From NCBI GenBank assembly GCA_009779115.1, contig WREX01000001.1, positions 10,878 through 74,877 of the forward strand: DNA of 64,000 nucleotides, read 5' to 3'. Made by a program: the position numbers and the translations under genes. Position 1 is the stretch's first letter; each line of letters starts with the position of its first letter. Shown here one piece after another: positions 2,643 to 56,159 of the stretch. The notes beneath the pieces are model-generated. The model saw nothing but the letters and a program-made list of their open reading frames with translations. It did not search any database and was not told the origin of the DNA. Source of the stretch: Propionibacteriaceae bacterium (GTDB lineage: Bacteria; Actinomycetota; Actinomycetes; Propionibacteriales; Propionibacteriaceae).

Positions 2643-2668
2643 TCACTACCTCCACTATTCCTGAGGAA

Positions 2669-2698
2669 ATTCTAAGGGATCCTCAGCACCTGGTCCAA
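2669..2698 (-). promoter_or_regulatory. candidate promoter of the NlpC/P60 gene (-35 TTGGAC, 18-nt spacer, -10 TAGAAT)
   Basis: The minus strand reads TTGGACcaggtgctgaggatccctTAGAAT about 30 nt upstream of the GGAGG RBS. The core ATCCCTTAGAAT..TCAGGAA.AGTGG recurs upstream of the neighbouring M23 gene. Confidence 0.45.
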
Positions 2699-2806
2699 TT
2701 GATCCGTCTGGAACCCCCCCTGCCGATCAACTTTACCACTGCTTTTCACACGCTGGCAGTCAGTCAGGACTACCAATCCCAGGTATTGTTGCTGTGGCAA
2801 GCACCG

Positions 2807-3913: not shown

Positions 3914-3940
3914 CCTTCCACCGCCCCACTTTCTGAAAAG

Positions 3941-3970
3941 ACTCTAAGAGATATTCAGAAAATATGTCAA
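3941..3970 (-). promoter_or_regulatory. candidate promoter of the M23 peptidase gene (-35 TTGACA, 18-nt spacer, -10 TAGAGT)
   Basis: The minus strand reads TTGACAtattttctgaatatctctTAGAGT, followed by about 30 nt including the RBS GGAAGGA and the ATG at 3913. Confidence 0.5.
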
Positions 3971-9375: not shown

Positions 9376-9672
9376 ATGGCAAATGTGAATGTAACCTACG
9401 AAGAGATGACCGCAGCGGCTAACCGGCTGATGACTGGTGAACAAGATATCACTACACAGCTCAACGAGTTGAAGTCGTACATTGGGAACCTGGTCTCGAG
9501 CGGATTCGTGACCGATCAGGCATCGGTCAAGTTCAACGAGACGTACACCAACTTCACCACGAGTGCCACCCAGACCATCGGCGCTCTCGACGGACTGGCC
9601 CAGTACCTCACGCAGGCTGCCCAGGCCATGCAAGAAACTGACTCGCAACTGGCAGCCGGTCTCGGGCAATGA
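9376..9672 (+). CDS. esxA: WXG100/EsxA-like small helical-hairpin protein (type VII secretion substrate/component)
   Basis: 98 aa starting at ATG 9376, 7 nt after AAGGAG. The N-terminus reads MANVNVTYEEMTAAANRL. The C-terminal tail AQAMQETDSQLAAGLGQ parallels the S. aureus EsxA tail. The gene lies in an operon with an FtsK/SpoIIIE ATPase. The central W-x-G is replaced by SGF. Confidence 0.8.
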   Translation: MANVNVTYEEMTAAANRLMTGEQDITTQLNELKSYIGNLVSSGFVTDQASVKFNETYTNFTTSATQTIGALDGLAQYLTQAAQAMQETDSQLAAGLGQ

Positions 9673-10268
9673 CAACCATCACCGGACTGAATGGTGCCAC
9701 GGGTGCGGAGTGGTACTCCTGGCCCGTCGGCACCCCAGTCGGGGCCCTGGACGAGGTCGCCCGCCGCTTCACCGACGACACAGGACTGTGTGAAAACGCT
9801 TCCGCGTCGATCACGGCCCTAGACCACAGACTGTCCCAGATGGGGGCGGCCATGGGCGGGGTGTGGGCCCCGCCCCAGATGGCGGGGCTGATCACAGCCC
9901 AGTGGTGGGCAGGCATCCTTGTTTCTCCCGACGACAGTCAATTTCGCTCTGCCCGTCGCTATGAACGCATCGTGTCAGGACGGGATTTCGACGGGGTCGT
10001 CACGGTGTACGACCAGGACCTTCAGTCATTGTACGTTGATGACATGGAGGCGATCCTCACCATTGAGACTCGCGGCTCGGGCGATGAGACCCAACCTTAC
10101 ATTTTCGCTCGGGCTGTTTATTTCCCTTTGTGGACGACGGCTCGACCCATTCTTGAAGCCGCTTGCCCCGTCTTCACCCAGGTGGCAGAGTTCGCCGCCG
10201 AAATCACGGCGATTGCCAGCTCCCTCCACATCCTCACCTCCAACACCGAGACAAGGACTGCATCATGA
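9669..10268 (+). CDS. hypothetical protein, T7SS-locus associated (no recognisable family)
   Basis: 199 aa. Its ATG overlaps the esxA-like stop (ATGA), so translational coupling is likely. No TM helix seen. Confidence 0.6.
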   Translation: MTTITGLNGATGAEWYSWPVGTPVGALDEVARRFTDDTGLCENASASITALDHRLSQMGAAMGGVWAPPQMAGLITAQWWAGILVSPDDSQFRSARRYERIVSGRDFDGVVTVYDQDLQSLYVDDMEAILTIETRGSGDETQPYIFARAVYFPLWTTARPILEAACPVFTQVAEFAAEITAIASSLHILTSNTETRTAS

Positions 10269-11146
10269 CCCGCAGATTCTCCTTCGTCCTGCCCGATCGG
10301 TGGTGGCGCATACCGCTCATCAATAAACAGGCGCGAACAGCTAACATTGACCATGTCGTCGATAGTCAGTTCCCCAACATCGATGAGGCCGCCGCCCTCA
10401 GGCACGACATCAAGACTGAACTCCAGAAGGTGGCTGACCAAGCAGTCCGGGCTGGGGGAATTGTCATGGCCATCTACCTCCAGCACATCGAGGAAGTGCC
10501 AATCACAGCGACCATGACCTGCTACGACATTTCCGGGAAGCTCGCGCTGCCCGAGCAGATCGACCCGGCGAAGCTTCTTGCCATGTATGTGGGAGACAAG
10601 GAACTGGAGGACAGTCTGCCGGATCTAGAGGAGATGCTGTTCCCTGATCGTATTCGTACTGAATCAGATGAGGCGCCGGATTCGGCAGAGGAGACAGGCG
10701 GTACTTCCGCATCGGGAGATCGGACAGGCGAAACCCCTCCAGCGGAGGACCAGCAAAGCTACATCACCGAAGCTGGACCCCAGGAAGCTGACACCCCGAG
10801 CCTGGCAGCGCAGACACCTCCCCAAGGCGGTGACCACACCGACGAATCGGAGGAACCCCGGCCAGTATGGACGAAGGTCACTTCCTTCAATGTGCTCGCG
10901 TACCGGCAGGAGAAAATCACCCCGGGGACGGACTATTTCGGACCCGGCGCTCCGCTGATCCCCCAGCTGCAGGTCACCTACGCACAAATTGTCAAGAACT
11001 TTGGGCTCGTGCAGACAGTCTTCTCGACACCGGTGATCCCGGCAAGGGATGCCTGGGTGCCCATGTTCGACGCGATGATCGCCGCATTCCGGACCGGTGC
11101 GCCCGATGCGGACACCACAGAAACAACCGATTCCAAGGAGGTGTGA
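10265..11146 (+). CDS. hypothetical acidic protein with disordered central insert, T7SS-locus associated
   Basis: Start taken at ATG 10265, which overlaps the upstream stop (ATGA). 293 aa beginning MTRRFSFVLPDRWWRIPL. A central stretch of about 80 aa is rich in E/D/P/T. Confidence 0.6.
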   Translation: MTRRFSFVLPDRWWRIPLINKQARTANIDHVVDSQFPNIDEAAALRHDIKTELQKVADQAVRAGGIVMAIYLQHIEEVPITATMTCYDISGKLALPEQIDPAKLLAMYVGDKELEDSLPDLEEMLFPDRIRTESDEAPDSAEETGGTSASGDRTGETPPAEDQQSYITEAGPQEADTPSLAAQTPPQGGDHTDESEEPRPVWTKVTSFNVLAYRQEKITPGTDYFGPGAPLIPQLQVTYAQIVKNFGLVQTVFSTPVIPARDAWVPMFDAMIAAFRTGAPDADTTETTDSKEV

Positions 11147-11147
11147 C

Positions 11148-12146
11148 ATGCAGTATCCCCAACTACGTATCGACGCTGAGATATTGTTCAATGCAGGAAA
11201 CTCATTGAAAAGTGTTTCGGCTGATTTCGGCGAAGCCGGCCAACAGGCCAAGGATGTCGCAGGGCTAGTTGGGCATGAATCGGTGGCACATGCGATCCGA
11301 CAGTTCGCCGACACCTGGGATGACCGCAGGGCAAACATGAAGAAAGCCATCGATTCCCTCGCCGATGCCACAACCCAGATCGGCCAGGCCGTTGTGGACC
11401 TTGATCATCAACTCGGTGATTGTCTGGAGCCTCCTGGCACGGGAGTCCCCGGGCAAATCCCCAAGGAGCCGTATCCAGGACCCAACCCTCCGCCTGGTGG
11501 TCCGTACCCGCCTGGTGGTCCGTACCCGCCTGCTGGACCGTACCCGCCTGCTGGACCGTACCCGCCAGCTGGACCGTACCCGCCTGCTGGACCGTACCCA
11601 CCTGGTGGACCGTACCCACCCAGCGGACCCAACCCGCCTGCTGGACCGTACCCGCCTGCTGGACCGTACCCACCTGGTGGACCGTACCCGCCTGGTGGAC
11701 CGTACCCGCCGGCTGGACCGTACCCGCCTGGTGGACCGTACCCACCCAGCGGACCCAACCCGCCGGCTGGACCGTACCCGCCTGCTGGACCGTACCCACC
11801 CAGCGGACCCAACCCGCCTGCTGGACCGTACCCACCTGCTGGACCGTACCCGCCTGCTGGACCGTACCCGCCAGCTGGACCGTACCCGCCAGCTGGACCG
11901 TACCCGCCAGCTGGACCGTACCCGCCAGCTGGACCGTACCCGCCAGCTGGACCGTACCCACCTGCTGGACCGTACCCACCCAGCGGACCCAACCCGCCAG
12001 TAGGACCATACCCACCTGCCCCCGGACCTGGACCTACTCCTTCTCCGCTGCCCTCTCCACACCCGAACCCACCGGCACCGCACCCGAACCCGTATCCGCA
12101 TCCGTACCCAACGCCTCCACCGGACTCGACTAGACCACCCAGGTGA
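11148..12146 (+). CDS. helical N-terminal domain protein with a roughly 230-aa proline-rich tail, about 175 aa of it (GPYPPA)n hexapeptide repeats
   Basis: ATG 11148 lies 8 nt after AAGGAGG and 1 nt after the upstream stop. The N-terminal 100 aa (LRIDAEILFNAGNSLKSVSADF...WDDRRANMKKAIDSLADATTQIG) look like small helical T7SS-associated proteins. About 29 hexapeptide repeats follow, then a PxP-rich end. Confidence 0.7.
   Translation: MQYPQLRIDAEILFNAGNSLKSVSADFGEAGQQAKDVAGLVGHESVAHAIRQFADTWDDRRANMKKAIDSLADATTQIGQAVVDLDHQLGDCLEPPGTGVPGQIPKEPYPGPNPPPGGPYPPGGPYPPAGPYPPAGPYPPAGPYPPAGPYPPGGPYPPSGPNPPAGPYPPAGPYPPGGPYPPGGPYPPAGPYPPGGPYPPSGPNPPAGPYPPAGPYPPSGPNPPAGPYPPAGPYPPAGPYPPAGPYPPAGPYPPAGPYPPAGPYPPAGPYPPAGPYPPSGPNPPVGPYPPAPGPGPTPSPLPSPHPNPPAPHPNPYPHPYPTPPPDSTRPPR
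11478..12020 (+). repeat. 18-bp tandem repeat array (about 29-30 units), consensus GGACCGTACCCGCCTGCT, encoding GPYPP[AGS]
   Basis: Direct reading shows units in the pattern G A A A A G S/N-A A G G A G S/N-A A S/N-A A(x8) S/N-V A. The variant pair GPYPPS-GPNPPA recurs 4 times. All six frames are open across the array. Confidence 0.95.
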
Positions 12147-12186
12147 GAGCCGACGGTGATGACGGGAATGAGAATCAGGCATCACT

Positions 12187-12229
12187 CGGTGGTGTGTGGC
12201 GACGCACTGCTCATCGCCACACACCACTG
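12187..12229 (+). terminator. strong stem-loop (14-bp perfect stem, 11-nt loop) downstream of the repeat-protein gene
   Basis: GTGGTGTGTGGCGA (12189-12202) pairs perfectly with TCGCCACACACCAC (12214-12227). It lies about 43 nt after the TGA at 12146. No U-tract follows, so it may be a terminator, an attenuator or an mRNA-processing or stabilising element. Confidence 0.5.
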
Positions 12230-12328
12230 TGAATACCAAAATCCGACACGTGGATGGCAGCCGGGCAACCCGACAAACCATCCATCCGACAATCAACGAC
12301 CACTGCGAAACAGTGAAAGAAGCCGATC

Positions 12329-13720
12329 ATGACACACAGAACCAATTGGAAAGTCTTGCGTACAACCGACCCCATGCCCGGAGATGTTCCCGGCATCCGT
12401 GACGCCGCTGATCACTATCAACAGATCACCACAGCCCTGACGACGACCCGTGATGATCTGGACACTGTGATGACTCGCGGATACAGCACAGACATGATCT
12501 CGGAGGCGGTGGACGCGATTCGTCAAACGGCCCAGAAGGTCAGAGACGCGGTGGATCAAGTTAGTGGACGCTACTGTGTTGTAGCGGGAGAATTGCACAG
12601 TTTCGCTACTTCCTTGGATGCGACCCAAACCCAGGCTGACTGGGCCGAAGGAGACGCTCAAGCCGCTACTCAGGCAGTCAAAGAGGCCCAGCAGAATGAG
12701 GCTATCTACAACGACCAGATCAACAAGCTCAAACTACAGATCAAGACCCAACAGCACGATGACCCGACGCAGTCCGACCCCACTACTCTTCAGCGGCTCC
12801 AGGATAAATTGGCTCAAGCTCAGCGACAACTCAGAGAGGTCGTACACGACATTTCTGATGCCCAAGGACGCATCGAAACAGCCTCCAACGACCTAGATAC
12901 CGCACTCGCAACATGGAACACGGCTGCAGAGCAAGTATCCGACACAATCCTGAGTCAACTCCAGTGCGACGGCCTGAATGACACCTGGTGGCTGAACTGG
13001 GGCCAAGACCTCTTCGGGTGGGCAATAGACCTCGCTGATTGGTTTGTCGACTCCATGGCCGAAATCTTGGATGGGATCTCCAAGATGATCGAAGGCTTGA
13101 TGGGCATGCTGGATGCGCTGGAAACGGGAGACCGGGATAAGTTCACGGATGCTTTCTTGGGCATGATGGACGGGTTGTCACTCTTGGCTGGCGCCCTTTC
13201 TAGCCTCCTGGGTGCCATAGCAACTGTTCTGAGTTTTATCCCGGGTTTGCAGGAGGCCGCTTTAGGCTTTAGCCTGGCGTCGGTCATCGTAGCAGGGGTC
13301 CAAGTCCTGGCCGACGTCGTCCTCGCCGCCAATCACAGGAAATCGTGGTCGACTGTGGGAGAGGAAGCGGTTTTAGCATTGGCGGGTGCTGCCCTGCGCG
13401 GACTCTCAGGACCGACCTTCGAAGGTGCCCTGCGTTCGGTTCTCCCCGCAAACGTGGTCAAGACCTTGTTTGCAGATGATACATTTGGCGCTGTCCTGGA
13501 CACATTTGGTACTGGCCTCACGGAATATCAGATTATCAACAATCAAGAATTGAACTACTCCATGCCGTCATTGAACCCCTCCTACGACTGGAGCAATATG
13601 CCTGAAAGTGAACAAGTGGGCATGGCCACCATGTTTGTCGCCGACGCCTATGTGCAATCGGAGGCGACTAGCTGGCGTAACTGGGGCAACACACTCGACA
13701 ACATCAAGAATGACTTCTAA
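12329..13720 (+). CDS. putative T7SS-secreted protein: N-terminal helical targeting domain plus C-terminal small-xxx-small membrane hairpin
   Basis: 463 aa. The N-terminus TTDPMPGDVPGIRDAADHYQQI resembles the actinobacterial putative T7SS secretion-signal domain. Residues 100-215 are coiled-coil-like. Residues 281-335, GLSLLAGALSSLLGAIATVLSFIPGLQEAALGFSLASVIVAGVQVLADVVLAA, form a glycine-zipper-like hydrophobic hairpin. Confidence 0.6.
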   Translation: MTHRTNWKVLRTTDPMPGDVPGIRDAADHYQQITTALTTTRDDLDTVMTRGYSTDMISEAVDAIRQTAQKVRDAVDQVSGRYCVVAGELHSFATSLDATQTQADWAEGDAQAATQAVKEAQQNEAIYNDQINKLKLQIKTQQHDDPTQSDPTTLQRLQDKLAQAQRQLREVVHDISDAQGRIETASNDLDTALATWNTAAEQVSDTILSQLQCDGLNDTWWLNWGQDLFGWAIDLADWFVDSMAEILDGISKMIEGLMGMLDALETGDRDKFTDAFLGMMDGLSLLAGALSSLLGAIATVLSFIPGLQEAALGFSLASVIVAGVQVLADVVLAANHRKSWSTVGEEAVLALAGAALRGLSGPTFEGALRSVLPANVVKTLFADDTFGAVLDTFGTGLTEYQIINNQELNYSMPSLNPSYDWSNMPESEQVGMATMFVADAYVQSEATSWRNWGNTLDNIKNDF

Positions 13721-13738
13721 CACCGTGGGGAGTGTCCA

Positions 13739-16700
13739 GTGAAGATTCGGCTCACTCTTGCGACGGATGCGGGGCCGCGTGACATTACGGTGACTGCGGA
13801 TGCCACGGCCACCATCGGGGATGTTGCCTCCACTATCCGGCGCAGTCTCGCTTTTCAGGCGGGGCTGGCGCCGGGGGGTAACCCGGGGCCTCGGATGACT
13901 CTTCAGACGCTGTCGGCCACGGGGTTGGTCGAGCGGACGCTCTTGTCGCAGTCCAGTTTGTCGGACGCTGGTCTGTTGTCGGGGGCGACGATCCAGTTGG
14001 TGGTCTTAGACGCCATGCCCTCCCGGATTGACGACCATGCTGGTGCGGCGGCGTACCTGCATATCCTGTCGGGGCCGCAGACGGGACAGGCACTGCCGCT
14101 GCGCTCAGGACCCAACACCATCGGGCGCAGTCCGGGGGCCGACATCACCATCGACGATCCGTTCGTGTCCAGCATCCATGCCCGGATTGTCGTTTCGGAC
14201 CACATCGAGATCATCGACATGAACTCTGCCAATGGGATCGCCGTGGGGTCGGGTCTCGTGGAGCGGTCCAACCTCGAAGCCCATGACACAGTCACCCTGG
14301 GCGACACGAGCTTCCGGGTGGAACGCAACCCATCCGCGGGAGCTTCCTCGTCATGGACGACTTCGATCGAATTCAACCGTTCGCCTCAGATCTGGCCGGC
14401 TTACGCTGGTCGGACCTTCAAGCTTCCCCAGCCTGCCGGACCCACCAAGCCCGGGAAATTCCCCCTGGTCGCCATGGTTGCCCCGCTGATCATGGGAAGC
14501 GTGATGTACCTGTTCACTCACAACATCATGAGCGTCATTTTCGTGGCTCTCAGTCCGCTCATCGCGATCGGGACATGGCTGGACCGCCGGGTCACCGACC
14601 GCCGGGAGAAGAAACAACAGACCCAGCGGTTCCGGGATGAGATCGAGACCGCGTCAACTCAGATCCATCAGGCCCTGGCTGAAGAACAACAGGCCCGTTG
14701 TCAGGAAATCCCTTCCCTGCAAACCTTAGTTGCTTCGGTCTCACAACTGGCCCCCACCCTGTGGCACCGCCGTCCCGATCAGGAGAATTTCCTGACACTC
14801 ATGACCGGGTACGGCACTGCCGCCTCTCGATCAACCGTCGACTTGCCGCAACGTGGCGAAGGCTCCTCACAACTGTGGCAACTCGCCACCGACCTCCAGG
14901 CCCACTCTCAAACAGTCGACAACGTCCCCATCCTCGTACCACTGCGCACAACCGGAAACCTGGGGATCGCAGGGACTCCGGCCTGGCTCGACTCCGTGGC
15001 CTGCGCCATCGTCGCCCAACTGGCCTGTCTGCATTCTCCCGCTGAAGTCGTCATCACTGGAATCGCTTCCGTGGCCTCCTGCCGGCGGTGGAACTGGTTG
15101 ATGTGGCTGCCTCACGTCGGATCGACCCACTCGCCGATCGAAGGGCCCCACCTCGCCACCTCCCCCGCCGAAGTCTCCTCCCTGGTCTCCCGGCTGGAGG
15201 AGTTGTCCGCCAAACGCCGCGAACTGCGACGCGACGCCGCGACGGCGTTGCCAGCCGTCGTCCTCGTGGTGGAGAACGACGCCCCCATCGAGCGGGGGCG
15301 TCTGGTGTCTTTGGCAGAGAACGGCCCTGACACCGGGATACACCTGATCTGGATGACCCCCGAACAGCACGACCTGCCAGCAGCCTGCCATGCGTTCTTC
15401 GTGGAAAACCACAGTGAGCACACCATGCACATCGGTTTTACCCAGGACAACACCTGGACCCAGATCACCTCCTGCGAGACTCTGACACCGGCCGACGCCT
15501 TGGTTGTGGCCCGCAGGATGTCCCCGATCCACGACGCCGGGGCACCGATGATCGACCAGTCCGATCTGCCGCGCGCCATCTCGTACCTCGCCCTGGCAGG
15601 CCCTGAACTCGCGGATGACCCGTCCTTCACTGTGACCCGGTGGAGAGAGAACGGTTCCATCCTCGGCCCGGGGGAACTCCCGCCTTCCTCGGGGAGCAAC
15701 CTGCGGGGCCTGATCGGGCAAGGCGCCCACGGGGAGTTCGTCCTCGACCTGCGTATCCACGGGCCACACGCCCTGGTCGGTGGCACGACCGGCGCGGGCA
15801 AGTCGGAATTCCTCCAGGCCTGGGTCCTGGGGATGGCCGCCGCCAACAGCCCCAAACGAATCACCTTCTTGTTCGTCGATTACAAGGGCGGGGCGGCCTT
15901 CGCGGACTGCATCAAGCTGCCGCATTGCGTGGGTCTGGTCACCGACCTCAGCGCCCATCTGGTTCGCCGGGCTCTGACTTCACTGAAAGCCGAGTTGCGA
16001 TACAGGGAGCACTTGCTGAACGAGAAGAAAGCCAAAGACCTCGTCTCGCTGGAAGCCACCGGCGATCCGGATTGCCCACCCTCGCTCATCATCATCGTGG
16101 ACGAGTTCGCCGCGCTGGCCAAGGAGATCCCCGAGTTCGTCGACGGTGTCGTCGATGTCGCCCAGAGGGGGCGGTCGCTGGGCATGCACCTGATCATGGC
16201 CACACAGCGCCCGGCCGGGGTCATCCGGGACAACTTGCGTGCCAACACCAATTTGAGGATCGCCTTGCGCATGGCGGATGAGACCGATTCCACAGATGTC
16301 ATCGGTACTCCGCTGGCCTCCAGCTTCGACTCGCGTACCCCTGGCCGGGGAGCAGTACGAACAGGCCCGGGCCGTATCGCACTGTTCCAGTCCGGCTATG
16401 CGGGTGGCCAGACGACCAGCGAACCGGAACCGGCACGCATCGACGTGGAGACTCTGTGTTTCGGGGCCGGGGCGCCATGGGAGATCCCGAGCGACCGAGC
16501 ACCAAAACCTCAGCAATCGGGCACCAAGGACATCAGCCGGATCGTCTCCAGTATCTGCCAGGCCGCTGCGATCACCGCCATACCCGAGCCACGTAAACCC
16601 TGGTTGCCCGACCTCGACTCGGCCTATGACCTCGCGACTCTGTTCGCGGCCAGCACCCAGCGAGCGCGCGATACCTCGGTCACGGCTCTCGCTCTGGGGG

Positions 16701-18160
16701 TCATGGACGATCCGGCCAACCAGGCGCAACATCCCGTCTTCTGGAATCCCGATGAGGGCAATCTGGCCATTTATGGGGCTTCGGGCTCGGGAAAGTCCTC
16801 CACCTTGCGGACGATCGCGGTGTCAGCCAGCGTGTTGGCCCAGGTCGCGCGGGTGGATGTTTATGGCTTTGACGCCGGTTCGTCGGGTCTGGCCATGCTG
16901 GAACCGCTTCCTCATGTCGGCGCCATCATCGGAGCTGACGACCACGAGCGGGTCAACCGCCTGCTGCGCCGGTTGATCCAGACCCTCGACGAACGCGCGG
17001 ACAAGTTCGCTGCCGTTCGAGCAGGCAGTCTGGCCGACTACCGGCGCATCAGCGGTGACCAGACCACCGCCAGGATCCTCCTGCTGATCGACGGATTCGC
17101 CGCGTTCAGGGACATGTACGAGAACACCGTCGGAACGGCCCAACCGTACTCGATGCTAGCCAGGGTCTTGTCGGAAGGGCGTTCGGTGGGAATCCACGTG
17201 GCCCTGACCGCTGAAAGACCGAACGCCATCAACACCGCCCTGGCCGCCAGCATCCAGAAGAGACTGGTCCTCAAGCAGGCGGAGGAAGCGACGTACGTGC
17301 TGCTGAACATCGCCAAGGACATCCTCGACCCATCCAGTCCCCCCGGACGCGGGGTGTTCGCCGAAGACACCAACGAGATCCAGATAGCGGTCCTCAACGC
17401 GACGTCCGACACCGAGAAGCAAGCGGCGTCGATCGACTCGCTGGCCAAGTCGATGACACAGGTCGGCATCGTGGCGGCGCCGGGAGTGGAACGGTTGCCG
17501 AGCCTGATTCCGATCGGCCAGGTCCCGACATCTGTGGGCGGGCAACCAGTGTTGGGGGTCCGGGAAGACACGTTGGAACCGATCGGTTTCAGGGCCGAGG
17601 GAACCTTCGTCGTCGCGGGCATGCCAGGTACAGGGCGCACCACTGCCCTGCGCTATTTGTGCCATGCCCTGCACCGTTGGGATCCGCGGGTCCCCAAGTA
17701 CTACATCGGTCCGAGCCGGTCCGCCCTCCACGCCGAGACCATCTGGGCGGATCACGCGAGAACCGAGGAGGAGATCGCGGAGTTGTGCACCGACATTCTT
17801 CCTTCCCTGGAACGTCCAGCAGCGGGCATACCTGGTGCGGTGCTCGTCTTGGAGGCCTTGACCGAATTCATTGGATCCTCGGTGGAGAATCCCATCGTCG
17901 GTCTCATCCGGGCGGCCCGCCGCAATGGGCATCTGGTCATCGGCGAAACCGAGACTGCTGGTTGGGGATCGGCGTGGCCACTGATCTCTGAGATCAGAAA
18001 CGGACGCCGGGGCATCGTGCTTCAGCCCGACCAGGCGGACGGTGACGGGCTGTTCCGGGTGGCTTTCCCTCGCGTCAAGCGGGCCGACTTCCCCGTGGGA
18101 CGCGGAATCAGCGTGGATGCAGGCAAGTCATGTACGGTCCAGATTCCGCTGCCGGACTGA
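13739..18160 (+). CDS. essC: EssC/YukB-like type VII secretion ATPase: Ubl(beta-grasp)-FHA-2TM-3x FtsK/SpoIIIE
   Basis: GTG start 13739, 8 nt after GGGGAG. Residues 1-90 end in the YukD/EccD-like signature LSDAGLLSGATIQLVV. FHA spans residues 105-195. TM helices are FPLVAMVAPLIMGSVMYLF and IMSVIFVALSPLIAIGTWL. There are three P-loops: GTTGAGKSE, GASGSGKSS and GMPGTGRTT. Confidence 0.9.
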   Translation: MKIRLTLATDAGPRDITVTADATATIGDVASTIRRSLAFQAGLAPGGNPGPRMTLQTLSATGLVERTLLSQSSLSDAGLLSGATIQLVVLDAMPSRIDDHAGAAAYLHILSGPQTGQALPLRSGPNTIGRSPGADITIDDPFVSSIHARIVVSDHIEIIDMNSANGIAVGSGLVERSNLEAHDTVTLGDTSFRVERNPSAGASSSWTTSIEFNRSPQIWPAYAGRTFKLPQPAGPTKPGKFPLVAMVAPLIMGSVMYLFTHNIMSVIFVALSPLIAIGTWLDRRVTDRREKKQQTQRFRDEIETASTQIHQALAEEQQARCQEIPSLQTLVASVSQLAPTLWHRRPDQENFLTLMTGYGTAASRSTVDLPQRGEGSSQLWQLATDLQAHSQTVDNVPILVPLRTTGNLGIAGTPAWLDSVACAIVAQLACLHSPAEVVITGIASVASCRRWNWLMWLPHVGSTHSPIEGPHLATSPAEVSSLVSRLEELSAKRRELRRDAATALPAVVLVVENDAPIERGRLVSLAENGPDTGIHLIWMTPEQHDLPAACHAFFVENHSEHTMHIGFTQDNTWTQITSCETLTPADALVVARRMSPIHDAGAPMIDQSDLPRAISYLALAGPELADDPSFTVTRWRENGSILGPGELPPSSGSNLRGLIGQGAHGEFVLDLRIHGPHALVGGTTGAGKSEFLQAWVLGMAAANSPKRITFLFVDYKGGAAFADCIKLPHCVGLVTDLSAHLVRRALTSLKAELRYREHLLNEKKAKDLVSLEATGDPDCPPSLIIIVDEFAALAKEIPEFVDGVVDVAQRGRSLGMHLIMATQRPAGVIRDNLRANTNLRIALRMADETDSTDVIGTPLASSFDSRTPGRGAVRTGPGRIALFQSGYAGGQTTSEPEPARIDVETLCFGAGAPWEIPSDRAPKPQQSGTKDISRIVSSICQAAAITAIPEPRKPWLPDLDSAYDLATLFAASTQRARDTSVTALALGVMDDPANQAQHPVFWNPDEGNLAIYGASGSGKSSTLRTIAVSASVLAQVARVDVYGFDAGSSGLAMLEPLPHVGAIIGADDHERVNRLLRRLIQTLDERADKFAAVRAGSLADYRRISGDQTTARILLLIDGFAAFRDMYENTVGTAQPYSMLARVLSEGRSVGIHVALTAERPNAINTALAASIQKRLVLKQAEEATYVLLNIAKDILDPSSPPGRGVFAEDTNEIQIAVLNATSDTEKQAASIDSLAKSMTQVGIVAAPGVERLPSLIPIGQVPTSVGGQPVLGVREDTLEPIGFRAEGTFVVAGMPGTGRTTALRYLCHALHRWDPRVPKYYIGPSRSALHAETIWADHARTEEEIAELCTDILPSLERPAAGIPGAVLVLEALTEFIGSSVENPIVGLIRAARRNGHLVIGETETAGWGSAWPLISEIRNGRRGIVLQPDQADGDGLFRVAFPRVKRADFPVGRGISVDAGKSCTVQIPLPD
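14051..14324 (+). other. FHA domain of the EssC-like ATPase, with a canonical phosphothreonine-contact set
   Basis: YLHILSGPQTGQALPLRSGPNTIGRSPGADITIDDPFVSSIHARIVV...NSANGIAV...TLGDTSFRV. The G-R, S-x-x-H and N-G positions are all retained. Confidence 0.8.
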
Positions 18161-18316: not shown

Positions 18317-19036
18317 TTACTCGTCGTCATCGTGAACGGCGCCAGGGTCGTCCAGCAGGGTGAGGTCTTCCGCGGTCACGAAACCGGTCGACACCGCCCA
18401 CTCGACCAGGCGCGAGCGGCGGCCCGAGGCGTGTTGGCGCACCCCTCCGCGCATCCCGTCCACACCGAGGTTGTCCAATTTCATACAGATATTGTCGATT
18501 TTCTTTTCGTAGCGTTTGACGGACCAGCCGATCCGGTCGGCGGCGTCGGCATTCGAGGGGACATGGATCATCCCGAAGCCTTCACGCCTGAGCGCGGGCT
18601 CAGCCAGGGCCACGACTGCCAGCCGCTGGGCCATGGTCCAGCCCACACCGTCGATCGTGGTCCCCGATTCCGCCGTGGCAGTCCCTATCCCCTCCTGCCA
18701 CAAGGGGATTTCATTCACCAGATGGATTTGGTACGTGCATGGACCGGCGGTGAACACCACGTCGACAGAACCGAACACCAGGGGCAGCCGGGTGGAGGGG
18801 CCCAGCCATGCCTGCAGGCTCGTCTTGCGGTCATAGACGGTGGCCGCCGTCGTGCCGCCGATGTTGACCAGCCACCACAGGTCGTACTCGTACACCAACC
18901 GCAGGAAACGACGATGCAGGTACGGGTTGGCGTCGAGAACCATGTCTGCCTCGCGGCCGATGTCGAACACCTGGCCCGGGCTCACCACGTGCGTCCGTCC
19001 CTCGAACTCGATACGAACAGTCGACTCCTCTGCCAT
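18317..19036 (-). CDS. FHA-like N-terminal domain / C-terminal helix-turn-helix putative regulator
   Basis: Start at ATG 19036 after GGGGAGGA (ORF track extends to 19276). The N-terminus reads VRIEFEGRTHVVSPGQVFDIGREADMVL...LHRRFLRL...NIGG. The C-terminus ADRIGWSVKRYEKKIDNICMKLDNLG...RRSRLVEWAVSTGFVTAEDL resembles a LuxR/GerE-type HTH. Confidence 0.6.
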   Translation of the reverse strand: MAEESTVRIEFEGRTHVVSPGQVFDIGREADMVLDANPYLHRRFLRLVYEYDLWWLVNIGGTTAATVYDRKTSLQAWLGPSTRLPLVFGSVDVVFTAGPCTYQIHLVNEIPLWQEGIGTATAESGTTIDGVGWTMAQRLAVVALAEPALRREGFGMIHVPSNADAADRIGWSVKRYEKKIDNICMKLDNLGVDGMRGGVRQHASGRRSRLVEWAVSTGFVTAEDLTLLDDPGAVHDDDE

Positions 19037-19061: not shown

Positions 19062-20762
19062 TCAGGCGACAGCACAACGCCTCGTTGTGTCCGATGGTAC
19101 CCCGTGACGGACGACTTGCACGTCAAGACAAACGTAACTGTCCTGCTCAGGCCAAGCCACCGTGACCGTCGTCTGATCCGTGATTTTAGCGGTGACATCG
19201 GTCGACCCGTCGACGGTGTAACGGTATTGATCACCCTCCTGGGGGTCCGGATTGACCCAGGTGAAGACTGCATCACCCGAAGAATCGTGGGTGCCGGTCA
19301 GATCGGTGACTGCTTGGGGGATGGTGGAATTCACGATGGGATTGTGGGGTGTGGCGGAGGTGGTGGTGGCATCGGGAGGAGGGGGCACGTCAGGAGCGCC
19401 GTGGAGAACCACGACGACCACGGTCACGGCAACAGCGATGATGACGACCGCGAGGGCGACCACACCCCATCGGCGTTTCCCGGGTGACTTAGGCGACCGT
19501 GGCTGAGCAGTCACCGATTCCGCAGGCTCAGGGTGGTCCAGAGTCACCGGGCGTACTTGGGTGGGATCGAGCAACCCGCCGAAGTCCACAGCGGTCGTCG
19601 GATAGGCCGGGTGGGCCATCTTGGAAGTGTTTTTCCTGCCAGGAACCTCGGAAATGGGCAATGAGCCCATACTTGCTAGTGGCAGGTCCTTGACTGGGGC
19701 ATGAGCCACGTCGGTGGCCTGTGCCACCCCCGGGAGGTGGGCCGGGTCGGGTTCCAAGGTGGGATCGATGGTCTGCTCAATGTGGGGGTCGATCACAGTC
19801 AATGGGCGCAGACTCGTCCCCGCTGTCTCGTCATCGCCGATCCGGTCATCGCCGTCAGAATCCTCCAGGATGTCCATCTGGGTCGCCGGCAGGTGGAGTT
19901 CGGCTTCGACCTCGCGCAGGGCCATGCCGAAGGCCTTCATGGAGGGATACCGGGCCTGCGGCGACTTGGCCATGGCAGTGGACAAGACCTGATCCAAGGA
20001 GGCGGGAGCGTCAACCCGGCCGAGCGGGCGGTAGGGAGCATTGCGGATCCTGTCGATCATCACATGTTGCCGATTGTCTCCACCGGGAATCTCGAAGGGG
20101 GGCCTGCCCGTCAGCAAAGCGTACATGGTGGCTGCCAGGCTCCAGATGTCCGATTGGCGGGTCGGACGAGGATTCTTGTCGAAGGACTCGGGCGGGCTCC
20201 ACGGGATCGACATCCCCTGCGCGCCTCCCCTGGAAGCCTCGACATCCGTCATGGCGATACCGAAGTCGCCGAGGACCGGGCGGGAGAAGCGGTCCATCAG
20301 AATATTGGCTGGCTTGACATCCCGGTGCAAAATCCCTTGTGAATCAGTCCCCAGGCCCGGACTCGTGTAGCGATGGGCCGACTCCAAGGCTCCAGCCAAC
20401 TGGATGCCTATCTTGAGGACATTGGCCAAGGACCACCCAGTCTTGCGCAGTCCCTGGGACAGGGCGGCACCCGGGTAGTACTCCATCACCAAGTACGGGC
20501 GCCCGTCCATCGCGACCCCGGAGGAAAAGACTGTCACGATGTTCTGGTGTCCGGACAACCCGGCCATGGCGTCGGCCTCTTTGTTGAGCCGGGCGGCTGC
20601 TTGGCTTCCCGCCATGTCGGCGTGCAAGACCTTCACGGCGACCTGGCGGTGCGGAGTGTCTTGGGAATACAAGTACACGTCGGCGAACCCACCGTGTCCG
20701 AGATCGCGCAGGTAGGAGAAACCGGGAATCTGCGGTGGGGCCTCACGCCGGGTCGAACTCAT
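19062..20762 (-). CDS. Hanks-type Ser/Thr protein kinase, single TM, FN3-like extracellular domain
   Basis: Kinase motifs are LGHGGFADVY, VAVKVL, HRDVKPANIL, DFGIA, SPPE and DIWSLA. A Pro-rich linker follows, then the TM helix WGVVALAVVIIAVAVTVVVVVL. The ectodomain is about 110 aa (AVTDLTGT..AVFTWVNPDP..GDQYRY). Confidence 0.92.
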   Translation of the reverse strand: MSSTRREAPPQIPGFSYLRDLGHGGFADVYLYSQDTPHRQVAVKVLHADMAGSQAAARLNKEADAMAGLSGHQNIVTVFSSGVAMDGRPYLVMEYYPGAALSQGLRKTGWSLANVLKIGIQLAGALESAHRYTSPGLGTDSQGILHRDVKPANILMDRFSRPVLGDFGIAMTDVEASRGGAQGMSIPWSPPESFDKNPRPTRQSDIWSLAATMYALLTGRPPFEIPGGDNRQHVMIDRIRNAPYRPLGRVDAPASLDQVLSTAMAKSPQARYPSMKAFGMALREVEAELHLPATQMDILEDSDGDDRIGDDETAGTSLRPLTVIDPHIEQTIDPTLEPDPAHLPGVAQATDVAHAPVKDLPLASMGSLPISEVPGRKNTSKMAHPAYPTTAVDFGGLLDPTQVRPVTLDHPEPAESVTAQPRSPKSPGKRRWGVVALAVVIIAVAVTVVVVVLHGAPDVPPPPDATTTSATPHNPIVNSTIPQAVTDLTGTHDSSGDAVFTWVNPDPQEGDQYRYTVDGSTDVTAKITDQTTVTVAWPEQDSYVCLDVQVVRHGVPSDTTRRCAVA

Positions 20763-22282
20763 GCCAACTCCTCGATCGTGACCATCAGGTCGTGGCTGAG
20801 GAAGTAGACGTCCTTTTCTTGGGCGATCTCCTGCTGCCCGTCAGTCAGACGGCGGTCGGGTTGCCCGACCCGGCGCAGAATGGTCCCGTTGCGGCCCAGA
20901 CTGGTCACCAGGACACTCCAATCCTCCAGGTCGACCCTCAGGTGGGTCGCCGACACATGGGGATCCTCGACGGTGATCAGGTTGGGGATGTCCAGGTTGG
21001 AGAACCGGGTCGCTTCGGGGCGGCGGCCGATGACGAAGGGATGGTCGATGGGCCTCACATCTCCCCCCGGCAGTTTCAGCCTTCCCAGGATCGGTCGCGG
21101 CACTTGAGTGGCATCGACATCCAGCGGGGAGTCACAGAACCGGCAGGTGACTCGCCGGGTCGAGTTGGCGCTGTGACACCGTGGGCAGATCCGCGCCGAG
21201 ACCATGGGGCCCGCCGGGGACGGAACTGGGCTGGCGGCCACCTGGTCGCCGACCCAGGTGTGGGTGGTCATTCCGTCGTGATCAGTGGAGGGACCTTCGC
21301 CAAAACCCGGTGCCGACATCACCGTCATGCCATCGTGGTCATCCTCGTCCTCGTACGGTTGGTTCGTCCTCGCCAGCCCTGGGTCGTACGCCGGTCCGCC
21401 AGGTGGCGGGGACATGGTCAGTTGAGTCTCGGCGGCGCTTTGAACAGGAGCAGTGGAAGCGGGATTCCCCAGGTCAGGATTCCCAGGGTCGAGATTCTCC
21501 GCTGCCTGATTCGCTGCTGCTGGGCCCTCGAAGAAGGACCGGTACAACGTGGTGTAGTGCAGGTCTTGCTCGTCACGGGATTGGACAGGGGCAGGTGGGG
21601 TACCCGACGGCGGAGTCACTGGTTCACCCTGCGGCGAGCCTGGGTGGGGAGGAGCAGCGGGACCATGGGCCGGGGGCGGGACAGCCGGTACTGGCGACAC
21701 CGGGGCCGCATGACCGGCTGGATTGGACTGCTCACCCTGGGCAGCGACCGCCGCAGGTGAAGGGGTGTCTGGCACATTGAGGGCCGCCAGTCCAGTGCCT
21801 GGGGTACTGGTCACAACACTGTGGACAGGGGCGGAGTCTGACCAGTCCCCTCCCCCCGGGAGCATGTCGATGCAAGAGACTGGCACGATGCCGTCGTTGA
21901 GCACCCAGGAGGGCAGGCCGCCGTCTTCGTCGGCAGCCACACTGAGCTGACTGGGGGCAAGAATCCTGTCTTCTTTCCAGGTCAGGACGTCAGCGCCGCT
22001 GATCAATACTGGTCCCCCAGTGGTCATCGCGCGTACTGACAATGGACCGCGTACTGCGATGTGGATGCCGCCGGATTCGGGCACGGCGATGGCGAAGGCG
22101 GGCAAGGCCGTCAGGTCCGCCGCCGCGTCGCCGACCATCCGCTGGAGGAGCTGGGCGAAACCGCTTCCACTGCGCAGGGCTGCCCATACCGACGTCACCT
22201 TCTCGCCGGTTGAGTCCGGTGCGAGGATGACACAGCCAGATCCCGACACCAGGCCGTACCATTGTCCCGTCGCGTACCTCAT
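20759..22282 (-). CDS. FHA domain protein with zinc ribbon and long Pro-rich linker
   Basis: Start at ATG 22282 overlaps the PP2C stop (ATGA); the ORF track extends to 22534. Zinc ribbon: CPRCHSANSTRRVTCRFC. C-terminal FHA: VIGRRPEA...SATHLRV...GRNGTIL. Confidence 0.8.
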   Translation of the reverse strand: MRYATGQWYGLVSGSGCVILAPDSTGEKVTSVWAALRSGSGFAQLLQRMVGDAAADLTALPAFAIAVPESGGIHIAVRGPLSVRAMTTGGPVLISGADVLTWKEDRILAPSQLSVAADEDGGLPSWVLNDGIVPVSCIDMLPGGGDWSDSAPVHSVVTSTPGTGLAALNVPDTPSPAAVAAQGEQSNPAGHAAPVSPVPAVPPPAHGPAAPPHPGSPQGEPVTPPSGTPPAPVQSRDEQDLHYTTLYRSFFEGPAAANQAAENLDPGNPDLGNPASTAPVQSAAETQLTMSPPPGGPAYDPGLARTNQPYEDEDDHDGMTVMSAPGFGEGPSTDHDGMTTHTWVGDQVAASPVPSPAGPMVSARICPRCHSANSTRRVTCRFCDSPLDVDATQVPRPILGRLKLPGGDVRPIDHPFVIGRRPEATRFSNLDIPNLITVEDPHVSATHLRVDLEDWSVLVTSLGRNGTILRRVGQPDRRLTDGQQEIAQEKDVYFLSHDLMVTIEELA

Positions 22283-23091
22283 GATTGGTCTTTCTCGCCG
22301 GACTGGCCGCCGTCTGCCAGGCCCATCGTGTCGTCGACAGTGGCCCCGCCCGGATCGCCCGCGAAATCCTCCACGTCCACGATAACGACCGACACGTTGT
22401 CGCGCCCGCCCGCGGCCAGGGCGGCGCTGACCAGTTGGGTGACAACCTCGTGGGCCGGGAGCGGTTGGGTGACGATGCGGGCGATCTCGGTCTCGGTCAG
22501 CTCTGTGGTCAGCCCGTCCGAACAGATCATCCACCGCCCAGGACCCATGACCGGAATGAGCCAGTAGTCGGGCCGCTCGACGGTGCGCGCTCCGAGGACC
22601 CGCGTGATGACATTGCGCCGGGAGTACGTCCGGGCTGAAACGGCGTCCAAACGTCCCGCCTCGATCATCTCCTGGGCTTCGGAGTGGTCCACGGACACCT
22701 GGTTGACCGTGTCACCGACGACACGGTAGGTGCGCGAATCCCCCAGATTGATCACCAGCCAGTACGGCCAGCCGTCTTGTCGCACCAGCACGATGCCGCT
22801 GACCGTCGTACCGGCCGCCCTCCACGTGTGCGAAGCCTCCAACGAGTCGATGCTCCAGCGGGCCCGGGTGAGGGCGTCACGGACATCTTCGACGCTGGGG
22901 TCGGCGCCCAGTTTGCTCATCTCATCGATCACGATGGCACTGGCACGGTCACCGGCGTCGTGGCCGCCCATGCCGTCGGCCACGATGAACACAGGGCGTT
23001 CGGCCAAGACGGCGTCCTCGTTGAAGGCACGGCGGTGGCCGATGTCGGTCGCGGAGGCGACACTGAGTTTCACATCATCCAGGACAGTCAT
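22279..23091 (-). CDS. PP2C-family Ser/Thr protein phosphatase
   Basis: ATDIGHRRAFNEDA, VADGMGGHDAG, a GDSR block and a C-terminal DNVSVV. These match PPM/PP2C motifs. Confidence 0.92.
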   Translation of the reverse strand: MTVLDDVKLSVASATDIGHRRAFNEDAVLAERPVFIVADGMGGHDAGDRASAIVIDEMSKLGADPSVEDVRDALTRARWSIDSLEASHTWRAAGTTVSGIVLVRQDGWPYWLVINLGDSRTYRVVGDTVNQVSVDHSEAQEMIEAGRLDAVSARTYSRRNVITRVLGARTVERPDYWLIPVMGPGRWMICSDGLTTELTETEIARIVTQPLPAHEVVTQLVSAALAAGGRDNVSVVIVDVEDFAGDPGGATVDDTMGLADGGQSGEKDQS

Positions 23092-23804
23092 GACTCTCGG
23101 GCCCTCTCAACATGGAATCGTCTGCGTCCCAGGATCAGGGTGTCACCGATCGACAGTCGGACCGGTTCTCCGGGAACCAGGTGGAGGGGCAGGCTCCCCA
23201 TCCGTACAAGATCCGTACCATTGGTGGATCCTCGGTCCTTGAGCCATAACCCCTGGTCATCAAGGCCATACTCGGCGTGGGTCTTCGACAAGGACCGCTC
23301 CGGGTCGTCCACTGCCGTACACACCACGGACGGGTCTGGCGACTCCGGGTTGCGTCCGACCAGGCCGTGGCTGCTCACGTGGATGCGTTGGCCGGTGTCG
23401 AACACCAAATCGATGCTGAGGCTGTCCACGGCAGGGGTGGCCATCGGGGGCCCCGCCACGGCTGGCCGGTCCATCACTGGTCCCGGACGAGGCCCGGTCC
23501 ATCCGCCCGGGGCCAAGACCGTGGAGGCCACGGCGGCCACCGCCGCAGTGGGAGGTGGGCAGACAGCGGTCAGCTGAGTTTGTCCTGTGCGCACGGCAGG
23601 CTCGGGTCGCGGTGTCGACGCCGGTTGAGCCGCCTGGGAAGGGTTGCCATCAGCCTGCCCGTGGTCGAAGAACTCCGGGGTCCTGGTCCCCGGGACATCC
23701 CAGATCAGGAAACCAGCTGGATTCGAGGGGACGGACCGCCCGCAAGCAGGGCAGGCGACGGCTGACTCGGGGATCTGAGCCCCACACTGAGGACATGATC
23801 GCAT
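23088..23804 (-). CDS. FHA domain protein with N-terminal zinc ribbon
   Basis: Start at ATG 23804, 2 nt below the upstream stop; the ORF track extends to 23942. Zinc ribbon: CPQCGAQIPESAVACPACG. A Pro-rich linker follows. FHA: LVGRNPES...SKTHAEY...STNGTDL. Confidence 0.8.
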   Translation of the reverse strand: MRSCPQCGAQIPESAVACPACGRSVPSNPAGFLIWDVPGTRTPEFFDHGQADGNPSQAAQPASTPRPEPAVRTGQTQLTAVCPPPTAAVAAVASTVLAPGGWTGPRPGPVMDRPAVAGPPMATPAVDSLSIDLVFDTGQRIHVSSHGLVGRNPESPDPSVVCTAVDDPERSLSKTHAEYGLDDQGLWLKDRGSTNGTDLVRMGSLPLHLVPGEPVRLSIGDTLILGRRRFHVERARES

Positions 23805-34612: not shown

Positions 34613-34848
34613 GACATTACCCCTTGTTCCCTGGCCTGCCGCCCTCCAGGTATCGCACGAATCCTAGGCAGACCTCAAGTCTCCAGACACGATGCTAACA
34701 CACCTCACCAATGCTGCTTCCATGGGGATTAATCCCTATCAAGCCCGGATTCACCGATTGCTGGCGTCGCAGCCGGTGCATTCGGGGCCAGCCCGGATCC
34801 ACTGGCAGCAATAACTGTGGAATTGACAGATCACGTAGAATTGCTTTC

Positions 34849-35088: not shown

Positions 35089-35090
35089 CA

Positions 35091-49359: not shown

Positions 49360-49517
49360 TCAACACTCGCACCGTGGTGACGATGCCCTCGTGGGTGTCC
49401 GACATGAGCTCAGGACTGCCCCTGCATAAAGTGCTACCCTAGACTGACTCTGGAACCCTTGCCACCGGTGATCAACGGTGGCCCACGTGTCATCCACAGG
49501 GGAAGAGAGGACCACAG

Positions 49518-56155: not shown

Positions 56156-56159
56156 GGCT

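Follow-up and report, generated by a model that had tools for sequence, protein, structure and literature searches.

Two described systems come closest to the locus analysed here, a set of genes for a putative type VII secretion system (T7SS) in a 64,000-nucleotide stretch of DNA from a Propionibacteriaceae bacterium (contig WREX01000001.1, positions 10,878 to 74,877; hereafter the window). The T7SSd of Actinomycetota, reported in Olsenella and Bifidobacterium, consists of TsdA, TsdC, TsdD and TsdH together with TsdI (Garrett, Higginson and Palmer 2024, PMC11217815). Its parts are a WXG100 protein, an FHA-domain ATPase with phosphothreonine (pThr) motifs, a kinase with one transmembrane (TM) helix, a small protein with one TM helix and a giant Ig-like protein with a Sec signal; Garrett et al. 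found no ubiquitin-like component in it.

The second is the Esr pathway, with Schaalia odontolytica as model organism (Wang 2026, bioRxiv preprint, September, PMC13622651), which comprises EsrA, MoxR, a vWA protein, EsrD, EsrE, EsrF and EsrG. EsrA is a filamentous surface protein with a Sec signal, Ig repeats and a terminal beta-propeller, EsrD a transglutaminase, EsrE a kinase, EsrF a PP2C phosphatase and EsrG the FHA output protein, which often carries a zinc finger. The preprint describes Esr as a threat-sensing pathway in defence against epibiotic Patescibacteria and reports threonine phosphorylation of the FHA-output proteins. It finds that 40% of 3502 Esr loci adjoin esx genes, that the pathway is concentrated in Actinomycetales and Propionibacteriales, and that EsrG(FHA)-EccC fusions occur in Actinomycetes. 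Genetic evidence in the same study shows that the Esx-linked Esr2 gates the export of AesA and AesB, new substrates in which a helical head is joined by a disordered region, post-translationally, and does not gate that of EsxA/EsxB.

Judged from its genes, the region very likely provides the secretion part of an Esx (type VII) system that is linked to Esr, with a neighbouring kinase/MoxR operon as its sensing module.

Gene content and conserved linkage

Six co-directional plus-strand genes extend across 9376-18160 (open reading frame (ORF) listing and translation): a gene for an EsxA-like WXG100 protein, four ORFs and, last, the gene for a 1473-amino-acid (aa) ATPase. An earlier note on this DNA had described a WXG100 gene about 4 kb upstream of a 1473-aa FHA ATPase with two TM helices and three P-loops. 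All of these parts were confirmed, and the gap, filled by the four ORFs, measures 4.07 kb (coordinates in Table 1).

Similar to Esr-linked Esx loci, the window carries genes for a giant Ig-repeat protein with a Sec signal, MoxR, a vWA-like protein, a transglutaminase, a kinase, a PP2C phosphatase and FHA proteins that adjoin esx genes. The FHA domain on the ATPase corresponds to the reported 'EsrG-EccC fusion', the reported range includes Propionibacteriales, and the 332-aa product of the third intervening ORF has the layout of AesB (helical head and disordered tail). The window differs in having free EsrG-like proteins in addition to the FHA-bearing ATPase, in a tail of PAGPYP repeats where that of AesB is Gly-rich and charged, in one clear WXG100 gene where an EsxA/EsxB pair is described, and in a ubiquitin-like domain on the ATPase, which the preprint does not mention. 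Such a set of genes has been published before, as T7SSd and, more closely, as Esr-linked Esx. A divergent T7SS, as the earlier note had it, is a fair description, and an undescribed architecture is not. The window adds a clear instance from an uncultured member of the Propionibacteriaceae, with metagenome-assembled genomes (MAGs) as its closest relatives.

The minus-strand sensing operon is tightly packed, with partly overlapping genes, and converges on the ATPase gene, which it abuts at 18160/18317. Its kinase has one TM helix, an ectodomain of about 120 aa and intact catalytic motifs (VAVK, HRD and DFG). The EsrG-like 507-aa protein is made up, in order, of an N-terminal domain, a Pro-rich disordered region, a zinc ribbon (CPRC..CRFC) and an FHA domain at the C-terminus; homologs were found in L001, L003, L007, L008 and L011 of the related loci. 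The 2033-aa surface protein begins with a signal peptide or anchor and a domain of about 350 aa that matched nothing in Pfam or the PDB, followed by Big_9/cadherin-like and fn3 repeats; hydropathy and direct reading gave no C-terminal TM helix. We take the DUF58 protein, the usual partner of MoxR, to be the vWA-like component.

Closest to the ATPase gene in this operon lies the gene for a 239-aa protein. Its best PDB profile match is Rv1747 FHA-1 (E 0.06), with a weak HTH_8 match (0.04), and GR and NPYLHR are invariant in its FHA-like N-terminus. Homologs with 43-60% identity are present in L001, L003 and L007-L011, immediately upstream of the ATPase gene in L009-L011, and the gene adjoins the ATPase or kinase gene in every Esr-linked relative. 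The protein is a candidate output or regulator and could connect the phosphorelay to transcription, a link listed as unknown in the preprint (PMC13622651).

Linkage was surveyed by tblastn of the neighbouring-operon proteins against 40 related loci. The nearest relatives of the ATPase are encoded on Propionibacteriaceae MAG contigs (71-77% identity). Because the gene order recurs in four independent contigs of this family (L001, L003, L006 and L007), and the locus genes are present in rearranged form in L002, L004, L005 and L008, the arrangement is not due to chance. In the window, L001, L003 and L007 the two operons lie side by side and converge. L011 has the genes on one strand in the order moxR-duf58-tgpA-fha-pp2c-(507-aa gene)-stk-(239-aa gene)-ATPase, where stk denotes the Ser/Thr kinase gene. 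L009 and L010, at 43% ATPase identity, have the order of L011, with no PP2C or Ser/Thr kinase match detected; in these 43%-identity relatives the ATPase gene is the last gene of the sensing operon. Since synteny is kept down to 43% ATPase identity, the kinase/MoxR operon appears to be functionally tied to the ATPase and is best regarded as part of the secretion system, as the earlier note had suspected.

In the Actinospica/Catellatospora clade (30% ATPase identity), a Ser/Thr kinase gene directly follows the ATPase gene and is alone in remaining linked to it. The kinase in L025 (14764-16764) has a C-terminal Ricin-type lectin ectodomain, with a two-component system nearby, and that in L014 lies at 16440-17894. 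The ten flanking ORFs that were scanned in L025 and L014 include no recognisable WXG100 gene.

One MAG (WRFP01, with loci L002 and L009) encodes two paralogous ATPases of this type, which are 73% and 43% identical to that of the window. Copy 1 lies beside menE, with WXG100 and RHS toxin genes downstream; copy 2 is last in a MoxR-to-kinase operon. This suggests a split into a 'cargo' copy and a 'sensor-linked' copy.

The secretion ATPase and its N-terminal domains

The ATPase matched FtsK_SpoIIIE (E 1.8e-51), and its best NCBIfam match was the EssC model TIGR03928, with 553.5 bits over residues 211-1240, under the cutoff of 778.4. It scored 331.3 bits against EccCa (cutoff 509.15) and a borderline 342.4 against EccCb (cutoff 346.55). 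The FtsK model gave only 58 bits. By these hidden Markov model (HMM) scores the protein groups with EssC/EccC rather than with FtsK, and together with the WXG100 gene they uphold the earlier description of a T7SS-type locus. The ATPase is predicted to be of T7SS type, closer to EssC than to EccC, and not a DNA translocase. An FtsK/TraB/SpoIIIE-type DNA translocase under FHA/kinase control, beside a coincidental WXG100 gene, would account for the FtsK_SpoIIIE P-loop modules and for the public annotation of homologs as 'DNA segregation ATPase FtsK/SpoIIIE'. In addition to the HMM scores, however, the three-module layout with two TM helices is typical of EssC/EccC, seven or more loci have WXG100 and WXG-like toxin genes linked to the ATPase gene, and the ubiquitin-like domain structurally best matches the T7SS protein EccD. 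Such a translocase is scarcely credible.

The two TM helices have hydropathy peaks of 1.98 and 2.15. All three P-loop modules (D1-D3) of the earlier description have a Walker A site, but only D1 is canonical in both Walker A (GTTGAGKS at 682) and Walker B (LIIIVDE at 783). D2 combines Walker A GASGSGKS at 1013 with a Walker B, ILLLIDG, that lacks the glutamate. In D3 the sequence is GMPGTGRT (residues 1294-1301, 17618-17641), where Arg stands at the position of the Walker Lys, and this G-R pair falls within conserved columns of a 43-sequence homolog alignment. ATP is probably hydrolysed by D1 alone.

Full-length searches returned more than 350 ATPase homologs across Actinomycetes, among them one in the Actinomycetaceae (Buchananella felis, 52% identity); residues 1-235 alone returned two proteins. 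For comparison with T7SS subtypes, about 1100 residues each of EccC, EssC, TscC, TsdC, TseC and TsjC were rebuilt by optical character recognition (OCR) of Garrett Fig. S2. The window ATPase scored 251-261 bits against TsdC, 277-288 against TseC, 308 against EssC, 305 against TscC, 320 against TsjC and 181 against EccC. In a neighbour-joining tree rooted on EccC, the window clade and the Actinospica/Catellatospora clade formed their own branch outside TsdC/TseC, sister to all Bacillota-type representatives plus TsdC; this placement is indicative only, because the references carry OCR noise and the tree has no bootstrap. It nevertheless speaks against simple membership in TsdC, and the ATPase may belong to a lineage that is new and separate from the TsdC/TseC clade.

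These data bear on a simpler account, in which the region is a plain T7SSd as described by Garrett et al. and the kinase (TsdD) and giant Ig protein (TsdI) form a structural, envelope-spanning conduit rather than a separate sensing pathway. The overlap in content is considerable. The window shares with T7SSd the phylum, a single WXG100 gene, an ATPase FHA domain with the GR/SxxH/NG pattern, a Ser/Thr kinase with one TM helix and a giant Ig-like protein with a Sec signal, and both are without EccB/D/E/MycP and EssA/B/EsaA. However, the window ATPase is only about 27% identical to O. uli TsdC (26.7%, measured on the noisy OCR references), whereas TsdC and TseC score 635 bits against each other, and it falls outside that pair in the tree. 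No TsdH-like small ORF with one TM helix was found in 9-36 kb, and the C-terminal TM helix of TsdI is missing from the giant protein. The ubiquitin-like domain is foreign to T7SSd as reported. The window has PP2C and FHA proteins, as in the Bacillota T7SSe, and its intervening MoxR, DUF58 and transglutaminase genes, none of them mentioned in PMC11217815, fit the Esr sensing model, which has genetic evidence. We judge a plain T7SSd unlikely.

A true T7SSb was rejected on the missed EssC cutoff, the pThr-binding type of the FHA domain and the lack of EssA, EssB and EsaA. A true T7SSa was rejected on the missed EccCa and EccCb cutoffs and the lack of EccB, EccD, EccE and mycosin in the 64-kb window. 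Likenesses to both systems nevertheless remain. The window shares with the Bacillota T7SSb (Ess/Yuk) an EssC-like ATPase, an EsxA-like protein that is of the homodimer type and has a similar C-terminal tail, toxin cargo that is polymorphic and accompanied by small helical partners and, as in YukD-YukB, a coupling of ubiquitin-like and FHA domains. It differs in having one pThr-competent FHA domain where T7SSb has two degenerate ones, a ubiquitin-like domain fused in cis, and an active-looking kinase in place of the pseudokinase EssB. The label 'T7SSb-type' in the earlier note does not hold on these grounds, and the view that an FHA domain on the ATPase is a Firmicute hallmark is outdated, since the actinobacterial TsdC has FHA domains too (PMC11217815) and EsrG-EccC fusions are reported (PMC13622651). 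Common to the window and the mycobacterial T7SSa (ESX) are the phylum, the ubiquitin-like domain with EccD as best match, and WXG100/EspC-like heads with disordered tails; the window ATPase differs as a single polypeptide with an FHA domain.

The earlier note had set the FHA domain before the P-loop modules, which is correct; it does not, however, form the N-terminus, where residues 1-90 are a separate domain. An AlphaFold2 (AF2) model that covered residues 1-235 and drew on 42 homologs had two domains and a mean predicted local distance difference test score (pLDDT) of 86.6. With this joint model, Foldseek gave only FHA domains among the matches listed, and the first domain was therefore modelled separately (pLDDT 90.3, predicted TM-score (pTM) 0.79). 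In the predicted structure, residues 2-89 follow the order beta-beta-alpha-beta-beta-3/10-beta of the beta-grasp fold. Foldseek ranked chain 7b9f_X, from the ESX-5 pore complex, first (7.2e-5) and ubiquitins next; many ubiquitins were matched, as were the ubiquitin-like domains of EccD5 (7b7j, 2e-4) and EccD1 (4kv2, 2.9e-4). The domain could not have been identified from sequence alone, because sequence matches were marginal: in Pfam, YukD reached 0.13, TGS 0.086 and Sde2 ubiquitin 0.023, and the top PDB match of an N-terminal profile was a redesigned ubiquitin (E 0.033). Every homolog inspected has the domain, even those of the Actinospica/Catellatospora clade at 30% identity.

The single FHA domain matched those of GarA, OdhI and FhaA in Foldseek (E about 3e-9, TM-scores normalised by target (TMt) 0.83-0.90). 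The 43-sequence alignment shows no variation at the pThr residues G129-R130, S144, H147 and G166, and conservation of at least 90% at N165. The domain is of the canonical phosphothreonine-binding type, with the pThr triad intact and pThr binding predicted. The GR/SxxH/NG pattern is reported for TsdC and TseC and is absent from T7SSb EssC; TsbC conserves the three motifs at 0/0/21% (Garrett Table S1, PMC11217815).

In the core-complex structure of Bacillus subtilis, YukD is required to fix and stabilise the FHA domains of YukB (PMC12637312), which makes a fused ubiquitin-like domain beside an FHA domain mechanistically plausible. We found no report in the literature of a ubiquitin-like domain fused to a T7SS ATPase, and the word 'ubiquitin' has no occurrence in the Wang 2026 preprint (PMC13622651). 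The fused domain, as modelled, may therefore be a new feature. With EccD as its best structural match, an in-cis ubiquitin-like domain would be one module linking all three T7SS branches, and it offers a testable reason for the lack of a YukD/EsaB-type gene in a locus with T7SSd-like content.

A wider reading, which we put forward tentatively and as somewhat improbable, is that the EssC-like ATPases with ubiquitin-like and FHA domains in Propionibacteriales, Actinomycetales, Micrococcales and the Actinospica/Catellatospora clade form a T7SS lineage of their own outside subtypes a-j, in which the ATPase, as the sole dedicated membrane component, would be a self-sufficient channel and motor with a ubiquitin-like factor captured in cis. 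If true, this would be the minimal T7SS. That factor, represented by YukD/EsaB or by the N-terminal domain of EccD, would be universally required and would here sit beside a pThr-reading FHA domain, which would also account for a ubiquitin-like module in T7SSd-like actinobacterial content where none was reported. The locus provides a compact candidate set for the question of a minimal T7SS channel.

Genes between esxA and the ATPase gene

No EccB, EccD, EccE, mycosin, EssA, EssB/YukC, EsaA or stand-alone YukD gave a Pfam or NCBIfam match among the ORFs scanned in the 64-kb window, in agreement with the earlier note, which had recognised no ESX or T7SSb membrane core. ORFs of at least 35 aa outside the annotated genes in 9-36 kb, listed without HMM runs, included none plausible as a membrane or YukD-like protein, and the only one with a TM helix was a lipoprotein-like ORF at 35091-35540. 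Of dedicated membrane components, none but the ATPase could be recognised in the window from sequence. The earlier note had proposed a stripped-down T7SSb, with the missing membrane core supplied by four novel ORFs, and had found no family for three of them. The four ORFs do match no core family, and one, encoding a 463-aa protein, has two hydrophobic helices. However, the 199-, 293- and 332-aa products have no TM helix and are therefore not membrane partners.

Two of the proteins, of 332 and 463 aa, instead fall into substrate families. The 332-aa protein, whose most likely start is ATG 11148 rather than GTG 11097, has a Pro/Gly/Tyr-rich disordered tail with PAGPYP hexapeptides. Slippage at the underlying tandem repeat could vary the number of repeats. 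The head occurs as a stand-alone protein of 95-126 aa, without the tail, in L002, L004, L005 and L007, and is fused to CHAP, a peptidoglycan-hydrolase domain, in L006 (CHAP 1.1e-13; head EspC 1.1e-3, WXG100 1.3e-3); the tail of the L001 relative is a different disordered region. Against the PDB, the family profile gave ESAT-6 chains (3fav_B and 1wa8_B) as its only biologically coherent matches, weak at E about 0.07 and near full length.

In the 463-aa protein the helical head ends in DGLNDTWW..WG, followed by the two hydrophobic helices. Profile searches with the head returned generic coiled coils only. The same N-terminal module heads RHS toxins of 1452 and 1503 aa in L002 and L004 (RHS_repeat 4.9e-58 and 2.5e-75, with DUF6531 also matched), and the 463-aa gene adjoins a gene for a WXG100-like partner in the window, L002, L004 and L005. 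GC content at third codon positions is 0.53 in the 332-aa gene and 0.63 in the 463-aa gene, compared to about 0.78 in the core genes.

Because their heads are fused to CHAP and RHS toxins elsewhere, their C-termini vary and their third-position GC content is below that of the core, the 332-aa and 463-aa proteins are predicted to be members of polymorphic T7SS cargo families and not parts of the machine. Both genes are absent from L009-L011, where the ATPase gene sits inside the Esr operon. With the missed EssC cutoff and the pThr-binding FHA domain added, a stripped-down T7SSb is very unlikely. The heads common to RHS and CHAP toxins can be used for effector mining in Actinomycetes.

For the other two products the earlier statement stands: neither matched any family. 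The start of the 199-aa gene overlaps the esxA stop codon, suggesting translational coupling, and its homologs adjoin esxA in L001, L003, L005, L006 and L007; against PDB sequences the 199-aa profile gave just two chance matches to spike glycoproteins (E 0.4-0.6). The 293-aa protein has conserved N- and C-terminal halves flanking an acidic disordered insert. It is identical to NCBI FWF25_00095 from a Propionibacteriaceae MAG, its 13 database homologs are all 'hypothetical' and without a Pfam domain, and its profile had zero matches among PDB sequences. The two genes are kept beside esxA in five or six loci. Their products were ruled out as paralogs (hhalign probability 0.9%); we can only guess that they are candidate accessory, adaptor or chaperone proteins.

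The WXG100 protein also exceeded the cutoff of TIGR03930 (49.3 bits, cutoff 44.85). Its central motif is SGFVT in place of WxG, so that the hairpin is without tryptophan, and homologs share a conserved hairpin motif, (S/G)GF(V/T)T. They are present in 7 loci at 31-76% identity. The C-terminal tail, TDSQLAAGLG, is conserved among homologs as TDxQLAAGLG and resembles the tail of Firmicute EsxA. An FxG variant has been noted in AesB (Wang 2026, PMC13622651).

Proposed model and surroundings of the locus

In an Esr-linked Esx system of this kind, the giant protein, together with MoxR, DUF58 and the transglutaminase, would pass on an extracellular or surface cue that activates the kinase. Phosphothreonines would arise in the linker of the ATPase or in disordered parts of the EsrG-like proteins and would be read on the cytoplasmic side by the ATPase FHA domain, held in place by the fused ubiquitin-like domain much as YukD acts in trans on YukB. 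The machine would then change over from its basal export of EsxA to the 332-aa and 463-aa effectors, the latter with a hydrophobic hairpin that might be membrane-active, and PP2C would reset the state. In ESX-5 hexamer structures the TM helices of EccC line the central pore; here the channel would consist of ATPase TM hairpins, presumably 12 helices per hexamer, possibly with the kinase TM helix in addition. We infer the order of events and the ecological trigger, an epibiont or competitor, by analogy. The logic is also that of the PpkA-PppA-Fha1 pathway of the type VI secretion system, in which a transmembrane Ser/Thr kinase acts with a PP2C phosphatase and an FHA reader to gate, at the post-translational level, the assembly of an antibacterial secretion machine. 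That machine is unrelated, and in the window the FHA reader is inside the ATPase.

Several points weigh against assigning the region to an Esr-linked Esx system. The evidence observed for it consists of domain content, conserved linkage and substrate-family fusions. The match to described loci, almost gene for gene, was judged on gene content and description. The two operons of the window are convergent and not co-transcribed. No beta-propeller was detected in the 2033-aa protein, including its N-terminal domain of about 350 aa, by Pfam or PDB sequence search. The 463-aa protein matched Pfam T7SS_signal weakly (1.3e-4; 22.3, under the cutoff of 27). The canonical membrane partners are absent within the 64-kb window, but a partner may be encoded elsewhere in the genome, and the composition of the channel is purely conjectural.

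Table 1. Positions of the locus, the ATPase domains and the sensing operon in the window.
Feature	Position	Strand	Basis
EsxA-like WXG100 protein, 98 aa	9376..9672	+	Pfam WXG100 PF06013 E 2.8e-17, 63.2 bits (cutoff 27.3)
Conserved soluble 199-aa protein	9669..10268	+	no Pfam, NCBIfam or PDB-profile match; no TM helix
Conserved soluble 293-aa protein	10265..11146	+	no Pfam, NCBIfam or PDB match; no TM helix
Substrate-type 332-aa protein	11148..12146	+	WXG100/EspC-like helical head of about 100 aa (WDDRR motif) and disordered tail of about 230 aa; no TM helix
18-nt tandem repeat coding PAGPYP	11490..12019	+	Tandem Repeats Finder (TRF) score 709, 29.4 copies, 86% matches
Effector-type 463-aa protein	12329..13720	+	helical N-terminal targeting domain of about 240 aa, hydrophobic helices 283-334, variable C-terminus
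T7SS ATPase, 1473 aa	13739..18160	+	ubiquitin-like domain, FHA, 2 TM helices, 3 P-loop modules
Ubiquitin-like beta-grasp domain, ATPase residues 1-90	13739..14008	+	AF2 and Foldseek
Single canonical FHA, ATPase residues 105-197	14051..14329	+	Pfam FHA 4.5e-11 (residues 127-188)
Two TM helices, ATPase residues 241-281	14459..14581	+	hydropathy peaks
D1 Walker A to D3 Walker A-like span	15782..17641	+	motif scan
239-aa protein, start at M81 of long ORF	18317..19036	-	degenerate FHA-like N-terminus, helix-turn-helix-like C-terminus
Ser/Thr kinase, 566 aa (EsrE/TsdD equivalent)	19062..20762	-	Pkinase 9.6e-33
EsrG-like output protein, 507 aa from M85	20759..22282	-	FHA 8.8e-4, residues 417-483
PP2C phosphatase (EsrF equivalent)	22279..23091	-	PP2C 8.4e-7; DGMGGH motif
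Second zinc-ribbon and FHA protein (EsrG-like), likely start M47 of long ORF	23088..23804	-	Zn_Ribbon_1 7.5e-7; FHA 6.8e-6
Polytopic membrane transglutaminase TgpA (EsrD equivalent)	23807..26101	-	TgpA_N 4.4e-19; Transglut_core 6.5e-15; about 7 TM helices
DUF58 protein	26101..27486	-	DUF58 5e-11; 2 TM helices at 83-129
MoxR AAA+ ATPase	27483..28454	-	AAA_3 8.3e-62; AAA_lid_2 1.3e-18
2033-aa surface protein (EsrA/TsdI equivalent)	28511..34612	-	Big_9 1.5e-72 (8 stretches); Cadherin_5 3e-36; fn3 8.4e-29

Rfam and tRNA scans of the window found nothing. A sigma-70 promoter scan gave zero sites, and terminator-like matches were mostly intragenic.

Upstream of the locus lies a menaquinone operon with menD (4089-5822), menC, menA and menE, and upstream of that, at 1635-3943 on the minus strand, are two genes for secreted peptidoglycan hydrolases, one for an NlpC/P60 protein and the other for an M23 peptidase that has a coiled coil and a signal peptide. 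The menaquinone operon, and best matches in the Propionibacteriaceae, spoke against Bifidobacterium, a source that the GC content had at first suggested. Past the gene for the giant surface protein, 34711-36809 encodes a small PLDc_N membrane protein, the lipoprotein-like ORF, which is on the minus strand and has an SGC lipobox, and a CAAX protease resembling Rce1. Proteases of the CAAX/Abi kind often serve as immunity proteins.

The end of the window (49443-64000) holds a cell-wall polysaccharide-type cluster, with several GT2 and GT1 glycosyltransferases, WsaF_C, DUF7657/DUF7654, DUF2304 and an ABC-2 exporter. Clusters of this type have been reported within the Esr regulon (Wang 2026 preprint, PMC13622651), and the closeness of this one to the T7SS locus may be a coincidence.

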